A stretch of DNA of 64,000 nucleotides, taken from an uncultured Actinomycetes bacterium (GTDB taxonomy: Bacteria; Actinomycetota; UBA4738; HRBIN12). The stretch spans positions 1,433,478-1,497,477 of the forward strand of contig CAVRAV010000001.1 in assembly GCA_963719165.1 (NCBI GenBank), in the 5' to 3' direction. Numbering within the stretch: the first letter of the stretch is position 1; the number at the start of each line of letters is the position of its first letter. The position numbers and the translations under genes were made by a program. This document shows positions 8,684 to 14,907 of this stretch, piece by piece. Below the pieces are notes generated by a model. That model was not told the origin of the DNA, did not search any database, and saw nothing but the letters and a program-made list of their open reading frames with translations.

Positions 8684-10094
8684 CTAACCTCGCTCGGTCC
8701 GGGCGCGGTGCTCCGCGTCCTTGCGCTTGCGATACCCCTCGATCACCCGCTGCTCCCCGCGCTCGACCGCCAGGGCCCCCGGCGGCACGTCCTTCGAGAT
8801 CACGGACCCCGCCGCCGTGACGGCCTCGCGGCCCACGCGCACCGGCGCCACCAGGATGGTATCCGAACCCGTGCGGGCTCCGTCCTCGACGACCGTGCGG
8901 TGCTTGGCATAGCCGTCGTAGTTCGCGGTGATGTTTCCGGCCCCGATGTTCACACCGTCCCCGATGTCGGCGTCGCCCACGTACGACAGGTGCGGCACCT
9001 TCGATCCGCGGCCCACGCTCACGTTCTTCAGATCCACGAACGCCCCCACCTTGGCCTCGTCCGCTAAGACGACCCCGGGGCGCATGCGCACGAACGGTCC
9101 CACGGTCACGTCGCGACCCAGACGAGCACCCAGGAGCACGGCGAAGGTCACCTCGCTGCCGTCTCCCACCTCCGCGTCCACCAGCCGCGTCGACGGCCCG
9201 ATCGCGCAGCCGACCCCCACCCGCGTTCGGCCCTCGAGGAAGGACATCGGACGGATCACGGTGTCGGGTCCGATGGCCACGTCCACGTCGATGTACGTCG
9301 TGGCCGGGTCGATCAGCGTGACGCCGCCCGCGAGGTGCCCGGCGTTGATCCGACCGCGGACGACGCGCTCCACGGCGGCCAGCCCGGCGCGCGAGTTGAG
9401 CCCCATCGCGCCTCCCGTGTCCACCGGCACGACCGTGACCCTGAGGCCGTCGGCGAGCAGGAGCGGGATCACGCGATTCAGGTAGTACTCCCGCTGCCGG
9501 TTCTTGCGATCCAGCCGGGGAAGGGCACGGAAGAGCTCGGAGCGGCGAAACGCGAACAGCATGATCGAGACCTCGCGGATCGCCTGCACGTCCGGAGGCG
9601 CGTCCTCCTGCTCGACGATCTCGACCAGGCGGCGGCCCTCACGAACCACCCGGCCGTAGCCGCCCGGATCGTCCAACTCGGTGGCCGCGATGGTGGCGGC
9701 GACGCGCGAACGCCGATGCGAGGTGACGAGCGCCTTCACATCGTCCGCGGTCACCGGATCGAAGTCACCGCCCATCACGAGCACGTCGTCGACCCGGCCG
9801 ACCTTGGACCGGGCGACGCTGACGGCGTCGCCGGTGCCGAGCTGGCGGGGCTGCCGGACGAACACGGGGGCGGGCGAGAGCGTCCAGGAGCGCACCGCGG
9901 CCTCGACCTCGTCGGCGCCGTGGCCGACGACCACCACGACCTTCTTGGGTCGCGCCGCCATGCCGGCTTGCAACACGTGCCAGAGGGCGGGACGGCCGCA
10001 CACGGGTTGGAGGACCTTGGGTGTGGAGGACTTCAGGCGCTTGCCCCGGCCCGCGGCGAGTACCACGAGGGCCAGGGAGCGGGAGGACTTGGAC
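8684..10094 (-). CDS. glmU: bifunctional UDP-N-acetylglucosamine pyrophosphorylase / glucosamine-1-phosphate N-acetyltransferase GlmU
   Basis: LAAGRGKRLKS nucleotidyltransferase motif plus C-terminal left-handed beta-helix hexapeptide repeats. The longest ORF reaches 10267, but its first ~58 codons are low-complexity S/R/P. The GTG at 10094 (MLTEPTTSKSSRSLALVVLAAG) is the more plausible start. Confidence 0.88.
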
Positions 10095-10307
10095 GTCGTC
10101 GGCTCGGTCAACACGCTTCCCGGGTCGAGGGGTCCGTATCGTCCCACATCGACGAGGGGGCGGCGACCCACCGCACGGAAGGCGGAGAGCCTCGGCGGCG
10201 TCGCGGAGATGCTGGAGGAGCTTCGCCCCGCCGTGCGAGGAACGGACCACGCTGCCTTCGTGGACACGACGATCAGTCAGACGCGGCAGAAGCGCGTTCC
10301 AGCGTTG

Positions 10308-10378
10308 TTCCGGGGGGAGGGGTCGAACCTCCATCCCAGGCTCCAAAGGCCCGTGTCTTGCCGTTAGACCACCCCGGA
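10308..10378 (-). tRNA. tRNA-Gln (anticodon UUG)
   Basis: Manual cloverleaf fold: acceptor TCCGGGG/CCCCGGA, D-stem GTCT/AGAC, anticodon stem CGGGC/GCCTG, loop CTTTGGA (U33 then TTG), T-arm GGAGG-TTCGACC-CCTCC. CCA is not encoded. Confidence 0.75.
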
Positions 10379-10497
10379 TCGCCACACAGATTAGGCGCTC
10401 GGACGGCCCGAGCACGCGTGCGCGGCGGCGGGCCGAGGCATCCCTCCGCTCAACGGTCGCGCTGGGCACCACGCATCGACCCTGGCACGATGCGAGG

Positions 10498-11058
10498 ATG
10501 CTGCGAACGGCTCGGCGGGGCGACGGTACGGCTGGCTCTCGGATCTGGGGAGTCGTTGCCGCAACGATGCTGCTGGCGCTCCCGGCCTGTGTGTCGCTTT
10601 CGACAGGAACGACTTCTCCTTCGGCGGAGACCTCCGCGGACGCGAGCGCTCCCTCGACGGGCTCGTCCTCGGGACGCCTGCCGCCGGAACTTGCCCGGCG
10701 GACGCTCGCGTTCGCCGGGCGTGACGGCATCTACGTCGGGAGGGCCGACGGCTCGAGCCTTCGCGCGCTCACCCATGGCCCGGCTGAGAGCAACTGGCCC
10801 GAATGGTCGCCCGACGGAACCAAGATCGTCTACAGCTACCGAGGCGGCGAGCTCTGGCTCATGAACGCGGACGGTTCCGACGCCCGCTTCCTCGCTCGTG
10901 GAGGTGAGCCGTCCTGGTCGGGGGACGGACGGTGGATCGCCTTCGATTGCGCTCCCTCCTCGGACCCCGATGGCCAGATCTGCGCCATGCACCCGGACGG
11001 GACGGGGAGGGAGCCGATCCTCGATACACGCGGTTCGTTCCCGTCCTGGCGCCCGTGA
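10498..11058 (+). CDS. lipoprotein with TolB-like beta-propeller (PD40) repeats
   Basis: Lipobox LLALPAC, and WSPDGTKIVYS / SWSGDGRWIAF / MHPDGTG repeats. The ATG at 10498 lies inside the longer track ORF 10021-11058, whose 5' part overlaps the tRNA. Confidence 0.6.
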   Translation: MLRTARRGDGTAGSRIWGVVAATMLLALPACVSLSTGTTSPSAETSADASAPSTGSSSGRLPPELARRTLAFAGRDGIYVGRADGSSLRALTHGPAESNWPEWSPDGTKIVYSYRGGELWLMNADGSDARFLARGGEPSWSGDGRWIAFDCAPSSDPDGQICAMHPDGTGREPILDTRGSFPSWRP

Positions 11059-11095: not shown

Positions 11096-11975
11096 TCAGA
11101 TCGGACGCGGCGCCGCGGGGGGGCCGCTGGTGACGAACGAACCTTCGACGGCGGTCGCCAGTTGGTCGGCATGGCCGAGGTGGCGCGCGAGCGCGACGAC
11201 GGTGGGACCGCTCCCCGTCATCACGGCGCCGAGGGCGCCCGCCTCGAGGAAGGCATCGACCGCACTCGCGATCTCCGGATGCCTCCCTGCGACGGGGCCC
11301 TGGAGATCGTTGAAGAGCGCGCTCCCGAGCAGGACGTCGTTGCCCGTCTCGGCCGCGGCGATCACGGCCCCGCCGTCGGGGCCGGTCCGGCTCGTCTCGT
11401 CCCACCAGTCGTACGCGTCCGGCGCGCGCACCGCGAACGGGAAAGGGCGCACCACCCACCACGTCGTGACGACGTGAACGGGTTCCACGCGCTCGCCCCT
11501 GCCGCTCACGTACACGGCGCCACCGGGCAGGAGCGCCGGGACGTCGGAGCCCGTCGTCGCGGCCACCTCGCGCAGCGCGACGGGGTCGAGGCCGCGGCCC
11601 CAGAGCTCGTTCAAGGCGCGCAGGACTGCCGCAGCGTCGGCGCTGCCTCCACCCATGCCCGCCGCCACCGGGATCCGTTTGTCGATCGCGACGGCCGCGC
11701 CCGGCGTGTCCCGACCCACCGCACGCGCCAGGGCGACGGCCGCTCGCATCGCGACGTTCTCCATCCCGTCGGGCACGGACGCCGAGGTGGGGCCGCGCAC
11801 CGACAGGGACCACGCATCGGCGCCGTCAACGGTGACGGCGTCCGCGAGCTCCAGGGGCAGCACCAGGCTCTCGACGTCGTGATAGCCGTCGGAGCGACGC
11901 CCGAGGACGCGCAGGAATACGTTCAGCTTCGCATGGGCGAGCGCGGTCACCGACCCGTGCCCGGCCTCGCTCACG
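11096..11975 (-). CDS. ispE: 4-diphosphocytidyl-2-C-methyl-D-erythritol kinase
   Basis: AHAKLNVFLRVLGRRSDGYH and KRIPVAAGMGGGSADAAA GHMP-kinase motifs. The GTG at 11975 overlaps the ksgA stop (GTGA). The track ORF extends to 12157 inside ksgA. Confidence 0.85.
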
Positions 11976-12927
11976 CCGGCATCTTCCGGGCGATCGCCGC
12001 GAAGGTCTCGAGCGAGAGCTCCTCCGCTCTCGCCGACGGGGCGACCCCACAGGAGTTCAGGACCTCGTCGGCTCGTTTCCCGTCCAGCCCGAGGCGACGG
12101 AGCGCGTTGCGCATCGTCTTGCGTCGCTCCGCGAAGCCTGCGTCTACCACGCGCCACAGCCGATCCTCGGACACGTCAACGGGCGGCGCCGACCGACGCT
12201 CGAAGCGCACCACCACCGACCCCACGCGCGGGCGTGGCCAGAAGACGGTGGGCGGCACCTTGCGCACCTTCGTCGCGATCGCCCGGTACGCCACCCGCAC
12301 GCTCACCGCGCCGTATGCGTCCTCCCCCGGCGCGGCCACCAGGCGATCGCCCACCTCGCGCTGCACCATCACGACCGATCGACCCACCGTGGGAAGGGTC
12401 TCGAGCACCGTGAGCACCATCGGAACCGAGATGTTGTAGGGGAGGTTCGCGCAGAGCGTCCACGGCGCTCCCTCCATCGTGGCTGCGAGATCCATCCGGA
12501 GGGCGTCGCCGTGGCGCACCGTTACGCTCGGGTGAGACGCCACCACCTCGTTCAGCGCCGGGATCAGCGCCCGATCGAACTCGACCGCGAGCACGCGGTT
12601 GGCCCGCGCGGCGACGAGCGCGAGCGTGAGCGACCCGAACCCGGCACCGACCTCGAGGACCAGAGATCCCGGCCCGACCTCCGCGTCGCTCGCGATGGCC
12701 CGGGCGAGGTTGGGATCGATCAGGAAGTTCTGGCCGAGCGCCTTGGAGGGGCGGATGCCATACCGGCGGGCGAGCTCCCGGATGTCGGTCGCCCCGAGCG
12801 TCGTCGGGGCGGATCGCTCACCAGCTGAGGCGGACGTGGAGGACGCCGGCGCCGAGGGGCGAGAGGGCGGCGAACGCCTCGGGCGAGAGGTCGATGATCT
12901 TGCCGGGGGAGAACGGTCCTCGGTCAT
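11971..12927 (-). CDS. rsmA: 16S rRNA (adenine1518/1519-N6)-dimethyltransferase KsgA/RsmA
   Basis: LGQNFLIDPNL...VLEVGAGFGSLT...NLPYNIS motifs. No in-frame start lies after the upstream gene stop. The ATG at 12927 gives a low-complexity N-extension overlapping the upstream gene by ~110 nt. Confidence 0.8.
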   Translation of the reverse strand: MTEDRSPPARSSTSRPRRSPPSRPSAPASSTSASAGERSAPTTLGATDIRELARRYGIRPSKALGQNFLIDPNLARAIASDAEVGPGSLVLEVGAGFGSLTLALVAARANRVLAVEFDRALIPALNEVVASHPSVTVRHGDALRMDLAATMEGAPWTLCANLPYNISVPMVLTVLETLPTVGRSVVMVQREVGDRLVAAPGEDAYGAVSVRVAYRAIATKVRKVPPTVFWPRPRVGSVVVRFERRSAPPVDVSEDRLWRVVDAGFAERRKTMRNALRRLGLDGKRADEVLNSCGVAPSARAEELSLETFAAIARKMPA

Positions 12928-13912
12928 CGATGACCACGGTAACGGAGCGCCCGCTCACGAGGTCCGTGACGGTGACGCGGGTGCCGAAGGGGAGGCTCGG
13001 GTGTGCCGCGGTGAGGCCGCTCCACGGCGGGTCGTACCAGGTGGCCAGCCCCGCCTGCGCGCGGCCGTCGGCGCCGGGCACGCGGGTCGTGCCCCCGTAC
13101 ATCGACTCGGGGCCCGAGACGACACGACGCGGCTCCGGCGCCCGCTCGACCCACCGGCCGATGAGCTCGCGCCGCGTGACCTCGCCGTTGATCTCCGTGA
13201 TCCGGTACGTGGCGCGGCCCACACCGTCACGACCCTCGGACAGCACTCGGCTGCGCCCGGGCGTCATGGTGTCCTTGAAGGTGGTGAGCGTGCGGAAAGG
13301 CACCGTCGTCGCCTCGAGTCGCGTGAGGATCTCCACGCGATCCACGTGCACGATGGAGCCGTCGTGAAGGGGGGTGCTGGGTGATGGCTCGACGCGGTCG
13401 TTCGCATCCGGCGTGATCCCCATGGCCGTAAGGAGTGCTCCGACCGTGTCCGCGTTGGTCAGGACGTCGTGTACCTTCCCCGACACGACGGCCTGCACGG
13501 ACACGGCCGGAGACGTACCGGCGCTCGATGCGGAACCCGAAGACTCGACGAGCCGGTCCGCGTCAGGAGACACCGACCTCGGGCTCGTCCCGTCCACCAC
13601 CCAGACCCCCACACCTGAGGGATCGGGCTCGACCGTGGGGCGATAGGAGAACGGACCCTCGGGCGCCGGACTCACCACCACGGTCATGCCGTCGGCCAGC
13701 GCCGTGGCGGGTGACGGCTCGACGAGGATCGCGGCATCGAGCGAGATGCCCTCGCCCGTGAGCAGCTCCCCGACGTTGGTCGACGTCGTACGAACGGCCT
13801 CCCGCTTGCCGTCCACCACCAGCGTGACGTGCTTGACCAACGCGAACTGCACGACGCCCGCGACGAGCAGCACGCCGACCGCGAGGGTCGTGCCTTGCAC
13901 AGCGCGGCGCAT
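12818..13912 (-). CDS. RpfB-architecture cell-wall protein: signal/TM, DUF348, G5 domain and a C-terminal RlpA-like double-psi beta-barrel (3D) domain
   Basis: Begins MRRAVQGTTLAVGVLLVAGVV (the ATG at 13912 is internal to the 585-aa track ORF, whose first 221 codons are R-rich junk). Has a G5 region GRSRVLSEGRDGVGRATYRITEINGE. The C-terminus ATWYDPPWSGLTAAHPSLPFGTRVTVTDLVSGRSVTVVIDDRGPF matches the RlpA/MltA 3D fold rather than the Rpf lysozyme-like domain. Confidence 0.75.
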   Translation of the reverse strand: MRRAVQGTTLAVGVLLVAGVVQFALVKHVTLVVDGKREAVRTTSTNVGELLTGEGISLDAAILVEPSPATALADGMTVVVSPAPEGPFSYRPTVEPDPSGVGVWVVDGTSPRSVSPDADRLVESSGSASSAGTSPAVSVQAVVSGKVHDVLTNADTVGALLTAMGITPDANDRVEPSPSTPLHDGSIVHVDRVEILTRLEATTVPFRTLTTFKDTMTPGRSRVLSEGRDGVGRATYRITEINGEVTRRELIGRWVERAPEPRRVVSGPESMYGGTTRVPGADGRAQAGLATWYDPPWSGLTAAHPSLPFGTRVTVTDLVSGRSVTVVIDDRGPFSPGKIIDLSPEAFAALSPLGAGVLHVRLSW

Positions 13913-14085
13913 CCGCAACCTGCGGAGCCGCCTAGGACGTGGTGCCAACCTTCCTCCAAGTTCTCGAGGAAGGCTTCGCGGGGAAGCGGCTTGAACCGGA
14001 TCGAAGCCTTCAAGCGCACGGGGGCGGAACCTTAGCAAACCCTCAACCCTCACTGCAACCTTGAGGCCGAACAGATGTTCGAGGG
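13913..14085 (-). ncRNA. structured 5' leader of the rpfB-like/ksgA/ispE operon (candidate regulatory RNA)
   Basis: The 173-nt untranslated leader contains two perfect hairpins on the mRNA strand. One is GCTTGAA...TTCAAGC. The other, CCTTCCTC...GAGGAAGG, sequesters a GGAGGAAGG element. Confidence 0.3.
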
Positions 14086-14907
14086 CTAGCGGAGCCCGGG
14101 GAACGCCTCGCGTGCGTTCGCGGCGGTGGCCGCGACGAGATCGTCCACGTCGACATCGCGTGCGCGGGCGATCGCCTCGGCGATGATCGTGATGTTCGCC
14201 GGCTCGTTGTCGCTGCCGCGGAGTTTCTGCGGGGCGAGGAACGGTGAGTCGGTCTCGGTGAGGATGCGGTCCAGGGGCAGGGCGGCGGCCGCCTGTCGGA
14301 AGTGCTCGTTCTTCGGGTACGTGATGTTGCCCGCGAAACTCACCCAGTAACCGCGCTCGGCGCACTCGCGCGCCAGCCCGACGTCGCCGCTGAAGCAGTG
14401 GATCACCACACGTTCGGCGGAGCCCTCTTCCAGCGCCCGCAGCGTCTGGGGCCACGCATCGCGGATATGTACCACCATGGGTTTCGCCGTCTCGTTCGAC
14501 AAGGCGATGTGGGTCTTCAGGCACCGAAGCTGATCCTCGACGGGCGAACGCATCCGGAAGAAGTCGAGACCGCACTCCCCCACCGCGATCACGCGCGGGT
14601 CGCCCAGCAGTTCTTCGATCCGCGCGGCGGCCGCCTGATCGAAGGTCGCGGCGTCGTGCGGATGCATGCCGGCCGTGGCGAACACTCCCTCCAGCCGCTC
14701 TGCCAGCCCGAGCGATCGAGCGCTCGTGGACGGGTCCACGCCCACGCAGATGATCCGGTCGACGCCCGCCTCGTTCGCGGCCTCGACCACATCTGCAGGT
14801 TCGTGCTCGAGGAGGAACAGGTGGCAGTGGGTGTCCACCGCCCCGCTCTGCACCGACACTTCAGGGTTCTGGTCGCTCACGATCGGCGAGCTTACCGCGG
14901 TCTCCAC
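14086..14907 (-). CDS. tatD: TatD family metal-dependent deoxyribonuclease
   Basis: AVDTHCHL...GECGLDF...DSPF TIM-barrel hydrolase motifs. Confidence 0.85.
   Translation of the reverse strand: METAVSSPIVSDQNPEVSVQSGAVDTHCHLFLLEHEPADVVEAANEAGVDRIICVGVDPSTSARSLGLAERLEGVFATAGMHPHDAATFDQAAAARIEELLGDPRVIAVGECGLDFFRMRSPVEDQLRCLKTHIALSNETAKPMVVHIRDAWPQTLRALEEGSAERVVIHCFSGDVGLARECAERGYWVSFAGNITYPKNEHFRQAAAALPLDRILTETDSPFLAPQKLRGSDNEPANITIIAEAIARARDVDVDDLVAATAANAREAFPGLR

Follow-up and report, generated by a model that had tools for sequence, protein, structure and literature searches.

A gene in the rpfB position of an uncultured actinobacterium codes for a DUF348-G5 protein with a predicted compact RlpA-type barrel and a probable role in peptidoglycan remodelling

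The window analysed here is a stretch of 64,000 nucleotides (nt) from an uncultured Actinomycetes bacterium (assembly GCA_963719165.1, contig CAVRAV010000001.1, positions 1,433,478 to 1,497,477), which contains a minus-strand gene, hereafter the DPBB gene, situated between tatD and rsmA (ksgA). We propose, with a probability of roughly 0.7, that it codes for a membrane-anchored, extracytoplasmic peptidoglycan-remodelling protein with a lytic-transglycosylase barrel, having its own promoter-like region and a hairpin on its Shine-Dalgarno (SD) sequence, and co-expressed with rsmA and ispE; we infer topology, activity and regulation. The protein would be the positional counterpart of actinobacterial RpfB and of firmicute YabE/SpsB, and would consist, in this order, of an Arg-rich tail and one transmembrane helix, two DUF348 modules, a G5 domain and a compact double-psi beta-barrel (DPBB) of the RlpA type. 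Asp341, oriented by Thr291, would cleave the bond between N-acetylmuramic acid (MurNAc) and N-acetylglucosamine (GlcNAc) to leave a 1,6-anhydroMurNAc end, as RlpA, MltA and YuiC do, and the DUF348/G5 part would serve to tether the enzyme to the wall. The gene would be driven from the promoter-like region downstream of tatD, with a leader hairpin pairing its ribosome-binding site, and its overlap with rsmA, with ispE next, would lead to joint expression of the functions for wall cutting, maturation of 16S rRNA and isoprenoid supply.

The minus-strand open reading frame (ORF) 12818-13912 gives an unbroken translation of 364 amino acids (aa); residue numbers are counted throughout from its ATG at 13912. 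An earlier note on this DNA, made from the letters alone, had recognized in it the DUF348 and G5 modules of RpfB, and proposed a Pfam search as a check. This search identified DUF348 (PF03990, E = 5.4e-17) in two stretches, the best being residues 29-68, G5 (PF07501, E = 9.2e-12) in residues 200-268, and DPBB_1 (PF03330, E = 5.9e-16, 58.9 bits against a cut-off of 28.8) in residues 300-361, bearing out both modules. The same scan of the protein gave no match at E ≤ 1 to the Transglycosylas/Rpf domain (PF06737) or to the 3D domain (PF06725), and no SPOR domain. In a sequence search of the PDB, the DUF348/G5 structure of RpfB (5E27) matched residues 135-252 (E = 5e-5). The parts of the protein are as follows, with values of the predicted local distance difference test (pLDDT) taken from AlphaFold2 (AF2) models:

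13832-13888, minus strand: hydrophobic N-terminal helix, about residues 9-27, with an Arg-rich tail before it; from the sequence and an AF2 helix at residues 2-25.
13667-13834, minus strand: DUF348 module 1 (beta-grasp), about residues 27-82; PF03990, AF2 strands and helix, block-mean pLDDT 67-79.
13505-13666, minus strand: linker, about residues 83-136; predicted disordered, pLDDT below 50 over residues 84-133.
13340-13504, minus strand: DUF348 module 2, about residues 137-191; second PF03990 stretch, aligned with 5E27, AF2 block-mean pLDDT 78-88.
13109-13336, minus strand: G5 domain, about residues 193-268; PF07501, AF2 block-mean pLDDT 78-94, 5E27 alignment over residues 135-252.
12821-13060, minus strand: predicted compact RlpA-type DPBB_1 barrel, about residues 285-364; from Pfam, 4AVR, AF2, Foldseek and hhalign.

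The N-terminal helix is a probable signal-anchor, and it is on this helix that the predicted topology and export are based; the protein lacks any Cys and therefore has no lipobox and is not a lipoprotein. The linker between the DUF348 modules holds the conserved sequences VGVWV and LVESSxSASSAGTSP, with V101, G102, V103, W104 and A128 as invariant columns of the alignment, and may represent a degenerate third DUF348 or an interaction motif.

The C-terminal barrel is related to RlpA at the levels of both sequence and predicted structure. In the PDB sequence search it matched PA4485, a stand-alone DPBB protein of Pseudomonas aeruginosa (4AVR, E = 5e-14), and, when searched alone, it showed 53-55 % identity to small RlpA-family proteins of proteobacteria. 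A full-length AF2 model built from 22 sequences gave block-mean pLDDT of only 36-62 for the barrel, and was superseded by a domain model built on 142 sequences (pLDDT 93.5, predicted template modelling score 0.84), for which Foldseek returned 4AVR as the best neighbour (template modelling score 0.83, root-mean-square deviation 1.5 Å, 41 % identity in the structural alignment), followed by a cyanophage hub protein and then by a loosenin, a papain inhibitor and expansins. The model thus depicts a barrel that is complete but compact. Family-wide, the alignment lacks the segment of about 13 residues, GRRTASGExxDxNA, that canonical RlpA domains carry between the WY and TAAH motifs; among the DPBB-type representatives with a recovered motif, only P0279 and P0342 keep a full TASGE-type segment. 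In the clade of the window, an invariant WYDPPWSG (13000-13040, minus strand, residues 292-303) stands in place of the TASGE-containing segment.

Thr291 (13040-13042) and Asp341 (12890-12892) are the putative key residues. Across 22 family members, D341, D330 and D317 do not vary and position 291 is occupied by either Thr or Ser; the motifs DRGPF and IIDLS are strictly conserved in the family alignment, and the IIDLS of the barrel aligns with IIDVS of 4AVR. When compared by hhalign with 3D domains from relatives of the YabE type, the barrel gave a weak match (E = 6.6e-4) pairing ATWY with ATAYT, AAHP with AVDP, DRGP with DTGG and IIDLS with IDL, so that the second and third Asp of the 3D motif correspond to D330 and D341. 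In YuiC and MltA, the orienting Thr and catalytic Asp are T91/D162 and T99/D308, respectively (PMC4499186). By our reading, these residues would lie in the ATAYT and IDL motifs, and Thr291 and Asp341 would consequently occupy the positions of the orienting Thr and the catalytic Asp, a mapping based on YuiC, MltA and hhalign. Since both residues would map to catalytic positions, with D341 invariant and position 291 always Thr or Ser, a lytic transglycosylase is the best-supported assignment for the barrel; P. aeruginosa RlpA is a lytic transglycosylase acting on peptide-free glycan strands (PMC6895207). The earlier note had left the barrel between the RlpA and the 3D types: the former holds, by the DPBB_1 match, and the latter does not, given the lack of a PF06725 match and the weak hhalign score.

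The architecture is shared by numerous relatives. The best 120 homologues listed (53-95 % identity) contain the same Pfam families, except for one record without G5, and bear names such as "YabE (DUF348 family)", "rare lipoprotein A", "ubiquitin-like domain-containing protein" and, wrongly, "RpfB". A further observation on names concerns the Rpf-less proteins P0070, P0110, P0116, P0270 and P0307, for which the JGI label "resuscitation-promoting factor RpfB" is misleading and seems to track the N-terminal modules. A genome scan, with one genome per species, retrieved 79 loci, almost all in metagenome-assembled genomes (MAGs) of uncultured Actinomycetota. The gene was followed by rsmA in 79/79 and by ispE in 76/79, and had tatD and metG upstream wherever the contig extended, the conserved order being rsmI-metG-tatD-gene-rsmA; together with the neighbours in the window, this corroborates the placement in the rpfB slot, between tatD and ksgA, made by the earlier note. 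A typical actinobacterial gene-rsmA locus (L032) occurs in a MAG labelled Planctomycetaceae, probably on a mis-binned contig.

An exhaustive search with the N-terminal scaffold alone as query retrieved 2311 relatives. The C-terminal domains of the 145 scanned among the 150 nearest N-terminal representatives were DPBB_1 (49), Rpf (23), 3D (22), SLT (2), NlpC/P60 (1) and polysaccharide deacetylase (1); the nearest representatives with an intact C-terminus were all of the DPBB type, almost all with the compact barrel. Two distant DPBB-type members adjoin rsmA, and in one case tatD, rsmI and pmt are found close by; a third is situated elsewhere in its genome. A distant DPBB-type gene, that of P0317 (labelled Actinomycetota), is found at L172 (4001-9077), followed by rsmA-veg-ispE-glmU-prs, an order typical of Bacillus, and has no tatD upstream. 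DPBB-only proteins of 87-141 aa with about 80 % identity (P0121-P0167) were considered as stand-alone paralogues, a reading that we rejected: P0122, the one checked, is a frameshift fragment, its DUF348 part and DPBB part being called as two genes (L080, 2255-3318) on a megabase-long MAG contig. DUF348-G5-DPBB_1 is therefore the standard architecture of a large family, of which this gene is an ordinary member.

An exchange of domains on this scaffold has been described previously. RpfB and YabE share their domain structure and the tatD...ksgA context, with Rpf replaced by an MltA-like Sps/3D domain, in what was termed "non-orthologous domain displacement" (Ravagnani et al., 2005, PMC1084345), and the secreted protein PPA2239 of Cutibacterium acnes was described in 2010 as DUF348-G5-DPBB_1 (PMC3224659; PMC3848858). 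None of the papers found treats the occurrence of DPBB_1 at the tatD-ksgA slot as a variant in its own right. The gene is largely anticipated by these reports and is not novel, because all listed homologues share its architecture and both the exchange of 2005 and the architecture of PPA2239 were already published. The domain swap put forward in the earlier note is thus valid relative to the mycobacterial RpfB, and not as something unusual.

The neighbours on either side of the DPBB gene are:

14086-14907, minus strand: tatD, upstream neighbour.
11971-12927, minus strand: rsmA/ksgA, downstream neighbour.
12925-12927, minus strand: ATG start of rsmA, inside the codons GAT-GAC of the invariant IDDRGPF motif of the DPBB gene.

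The genes rsmI, metG and tatD upstream, and rsmA/ksgA, ispE and glmU downstream, are all on the same (minus) strand, with pmt diverging upstream of rsmI; we take this to be the gene order around rpfB of Mycobacterium tuberculosis (Rv1002c-Rv1011). No Rpf, 3D or DPBB domains were found elsewhere in the window, and a tblastn search of it with 13 Rpf-type C-termini gave no match. The same region contains a tRNA gene (10308-10378, minus strand) between glmU and ispE, and a plus-strand ORF (10021-11058) with the repeats WSPDGTKIVYS and WSGDGRWIAF, which by eye resemble TolB/PD40-type beta-propeller repeats.

The DPBB gene and rsmA overlap out of frame by 110 nt (12818-12927), and ahead of its conserved core rsmA has no start codon available other than the ATG at 12927. 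Of 72 resolved sequences, comprising the window and 71 loci, 57 have a start codon placed precisely 110 nt ahead of the stop. At the start of the overlap, the first codon is GAT in 43/45 cases encoding Asp, against 21 % gene-wide, and AAT in 13/26 cases encoding Asn, against 6.7 % gene-wide; AGT, which yields a GTG, occurs once. Loci without the embedded start mostly contain stops within the overlap, together with another start just past the stop codon. Because the position of the start is kept, the rare GAT and AAT codons are favoured and the loci lacking it mostly restart after the stop, the sequence pattern argues for selection on a long out-of-frame rsmA overlap and for obligatory co-transcription. 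In M. tuberculosis, rpfB-ksgA-ispE is an operon with overlapping ORFs (PMC6009663). The co-expression with ksgA and ispE anticipated by the earlier note is supported both by this operon and by the conserved 110-nt overlap.

The stop codon given by the earlier note stands; its start, at 13912, probably does not. We therefore re-annotate the gene as:

12818-13948, minus strand: whole DPBB gene, with a probable TTG start at 13948-13946, the stop at 12820-12818, and a product of 376 aa.

The true start is probably this TTG, in frame and 36 nt (12 codons) upstream of the ATG at 13912. In an alignment of 27 sequences, the TTG directly after GGAGGAAGG is invariant; the ATG at 13912 is not conserved, being ATC in the close relatives L001, L003 and L004, and the codon following GGAGGAAGG varies among ATG, GTG and TTG across 80 metagenome loci. 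It is this combination, an invariant GGAGGAAGG abutting the TTG, an unconserved ATG and the alternation of start codons in relatives, that leads us to prefer position 13948. Homologues P0008 and P0015 have 376 aa and are 12 residues longer at the N-terminus than the ATG version from the window. Initiation at the TTG adds MAPRPRRLRRLR to the N-terminus, as an Arg-rich tail ahead of the membrane helix.

The spacer between tatD and the gene is conserved far above the level of the proteins, and contains a putative leader RNA with the following elements:

13949-13957, minus strand: SD sequence GGAGGAAGG, the 3' arm of hairpin P2; invariant in two leader alignments and pairing with 13966-13971 in the consensus fold.
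13966-13973, minus strand: anti-SD sequence CCTTCCTC, the 5' arm of P2; from the consensus fold and alignments.
13972-14008, minus strand: hairpin P1, in which GGCTTCG (14008-14002) pairs with CGAAGCC (13978-13972); from RNAalifold.

In P2, CCUUCCUC pairs with the SD sequence in the RNAalifold consensus, and the length of the loop differs between relatives, from 4 to over 30 nt; the loop of P1 holds a conserved GCCGCTTCCCC. Over 107 sequences, 99.3 % of the cells of P1 were paired, with UA to CG compensation in nine sequences; its covariation score was reached by none of 500 shuffles, and slid controls paired in at most 73 % of cells. The leader sequences were picked by patterns that fix the SD side, so that only P1 constitutes independent evidence of pairing. 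The leader motif is situated between tatD and the gene: tatD lies upstream in all 61 metagenome loci that are long enough, and the gene begins within 120 nt of the motif in 68 of 75. A known riboswitch upstream of the gene, such as the ydaO/c-di-AMP type described for rpfA, was considered and rejected, since a search of the window with Rfam 15 at the gathering threshold gave no match, nor did one of 13850-14150 at E ≤ 10. These features suggest that the P2 hairpin sequesters the SD sequence, which would be a means of regulation.

Two further conserved elements occur in the spacer:

14029-14058, minus strand: promoter-like block, TTGCAG, an 18-nt spacer and TAAGGT; identified by conservation.
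14068-14081, minus strand: palindrome CGAAC-N4-GTTCG, with its flanks TCGAAC-ATCT-GTTCGG.

We interpret TTGCAG and TAAGGT as a putative actinobacterial -35 hexamer and extended -10 element. The 18-nt spacer, GTTGAGGGTTTG, contains a direct repeat of GAGGGTT and hardly varies among relatives; such constancy is uncommon in promoter spacers and may indicate a second protein-binding site. The palindrome, about 9 nt upstream of the -35-like hexamer, matches 11 of the 12 positions of the actinobacterial LexA consensus TCGAAC(N4)GTTCGA (PMC3381160) and is a candidate operator. It is the sole exact occurrence of CGAAC-N4-GTTCG in the window, and in most of 48 aligned loci its arms are kept and the central N4 is variable; it is absent in L076-L078. 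The paper on the LexA regulon of M. tuberculosis does not list rpfB, Rv1009, Rv1008 or tatD, nor does that on Streptomyces venezuelae list rpf, ksgA or rsmA. A tentative and, in our opinion, rather doubtful proposal is that the tatD-gene spacer is an undescribed regulatory unit, in which a LexA-type operator and a promoter of invariant spacer are joined to a two-hairpin leader that locks the SD sequence until opened by a ligand, temperature, a protein or a small RNA; together with the rsmA overlap, this unit would couple wall cleavage with the maturation of 16S rRNA and the supply of isoprenoids across a large lineage of uncultured actinobacteria, with the barrel in the role of Rpf.

Several results weigh against a lytic transglycosylase under its own regulated promoter. 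The top NCBIfam match of the protein is rlpA (TIGR00413), at 61.5 bits and hence under the cut-off of 82.15, followed by weak matches to Papain_Inhib and EXLX1; the TASGE segment absent from the barrel is conserved in RlpA and 3D enzymes, and the first Asp of the 3D motif corresponds here to His304. Several structural neighbours of the barrel model (loosenin, expansins, papain inhibitor) are not described as glycosidases, to our knowledge Escherichia coli RlpA and the expansins are without detectable lytic activity, and our literature search found no activity report for any DUF348-G5-DPBB_1 protein. With respect to regulation, a scan of 12700-14200 for E. coli-type promoters or intrinsic terminators gave no call, so that the promoter assignment is based on conservation, and the invariance of the SD hairpin, partly built in by the selection of sequences, yields no covariation. 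From the missing segment, the weak Papain_Inhib and EXLX1 matches and the neighbours found beyond PA4485 and the phage hub protein, one could conclude that the barrel is not an enzyme and serves in peptidoglycan binding or wall loosening, like expansins and loosenins, or is akin to protease inhibitors, the protein being a scaffold or adhesin that recruits hydrolases, as RpfB recruits RipA. We consider this unlikely, because the closest sequence relatives, with 53-55 % identity, are from the RlpA family, the Thr/Asp pair, DRGPF and IIDLS are strictly conserved, and the homologous slot is always occupied in other phyla by a muralytic domain, be it Rpf, 3D, SLT or NlpC/P60 (our census; PMC1084345).

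How the barrel came to occupy this position is a separate question, whose answer is compatible with a lytic transglycosylase in either case. A DPBB-fold domain at the tatD-ksgA slot could be the older state, as in YabE, with Rpf acquired later in Mycobacteriales, Streptomyces and their relatives. This history is possible, if not quite probable: DPBB_1 outnumbers Rpf and 3D among the 145 nearest relatives, the DPBB_1 and 3D families are remotely homologous and agree in their putative catalytic positions, the order rsmA-veg-ispE-glmU-prs at one DPBB-type locus is firmicute-like, and Ravagnani et al. (PMC1084345) left the direction open. However, the DPBB_1 domain is far nearer to proteobacterial RlpA (53-55 % identity) than to the 3D domain of YabE, and thus the barrel is not simply a diverged 3D domain and this history still calls for at least one displacement. 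The chance that the architecture is an artefact, derived from chimeric assembly, a frameshift fusion or a pseudogene, is negligible. Frameshifts do break up some homologues from long-read MAGs, leaving separate DUF348 and DPBB genes, but the ORF in the window is unbroken, the full-length architecture is present in the 120 listed homologues, with full-length relatives at 79 independent genome loci, and conservation is strong across the domain junction, for which reasons we rejected this explanation.

If, as we favour, the barrel is a lytic transglycosylase, then the RlpA-type DPBB is a third common catalytic option, beside Rpf and 3D, on a scaffold and at a locus conserved across Gram-positive phyla. 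This would lend weight to the idea that what is required at the slot is a glycan-strand cutter coupled to rsmA and ispE, and not a particular fold. The automatic name "RpfB" given to members without Rpf misleads annotation, and Rpf-dependent resuscitation deduced from such labels in uncultured Actinomycetota would be wrong, because these proteins lack the Rpf domain. The leader RNA and the embedded rsmA start provide leads on how the coupling may be enforced, and are of more interest than the domain swap.

Compared with known systems, the locus resembles that of RpfB from M. tuberculosis (Rv1009), with which it shares the tatD-[gene]-ksgA-ispE slot close to pmt and rsmI, the DUF348 and G5 modules (match to 5E27), a predicted extracytoplasmic location, and an ORF that overlaps ksgA, in an operon in M. 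tuberculosis (PMC6009663). They differ in that RpfB contains a lysozyme-like Rpf domain (PF06737) and three DUF348 modules, whereas the protein from the window contains an RlpA-type DPBB and two DUF348 modules and, lacking Cys, is not a lipoprotein. Both rpfB-slot genes are preceded by a structured leader that would co-regulate ksgA and ispE (PMC6009663). However, the switch in the 5' untranslated region of M. tuberculosis rpfB is a transcriptional terminator/antiterminator reported to be confined to pathogenic mycobacteria (PMC6009663), whereas the leader in the window has two hairpins, would sequester the SD sequence, and shows neither an Rfam match nor a terminator-like site. RlpA and PA4485 of P. 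aeruginosa are similar in belonging to the DPBB_1 family and in the motifs DRGPF and IIDLS; unlike RlpA, the protein studied here lacks SPOR, a lipobox and the TASGE segment, and has its barrel fused to DUF348/G5. The closest published member, compared by description alone, is PPA2239 of C. acnes with its Propionibacterium granulosum homologue, which likewise contain DUF348, G5 and a C-terminal DPBB_1. YabE/SpsB, from Bacillus subtilis and other Firmicutes, differ in their 3D/MltA-type domain (PF06725), distant from the barrel in the window (hhalign, E = 6.6e-4), in the first of its three Asp, which is His304 here, and in having rnmV between the gene and ksgA, but they carry, like the protein from the window, a DUF348-G5 scaffold followed by a muralytic domain of the double-psi-barrel fold at the tatD...ksgA position (PMC1084345, PMC4499186).

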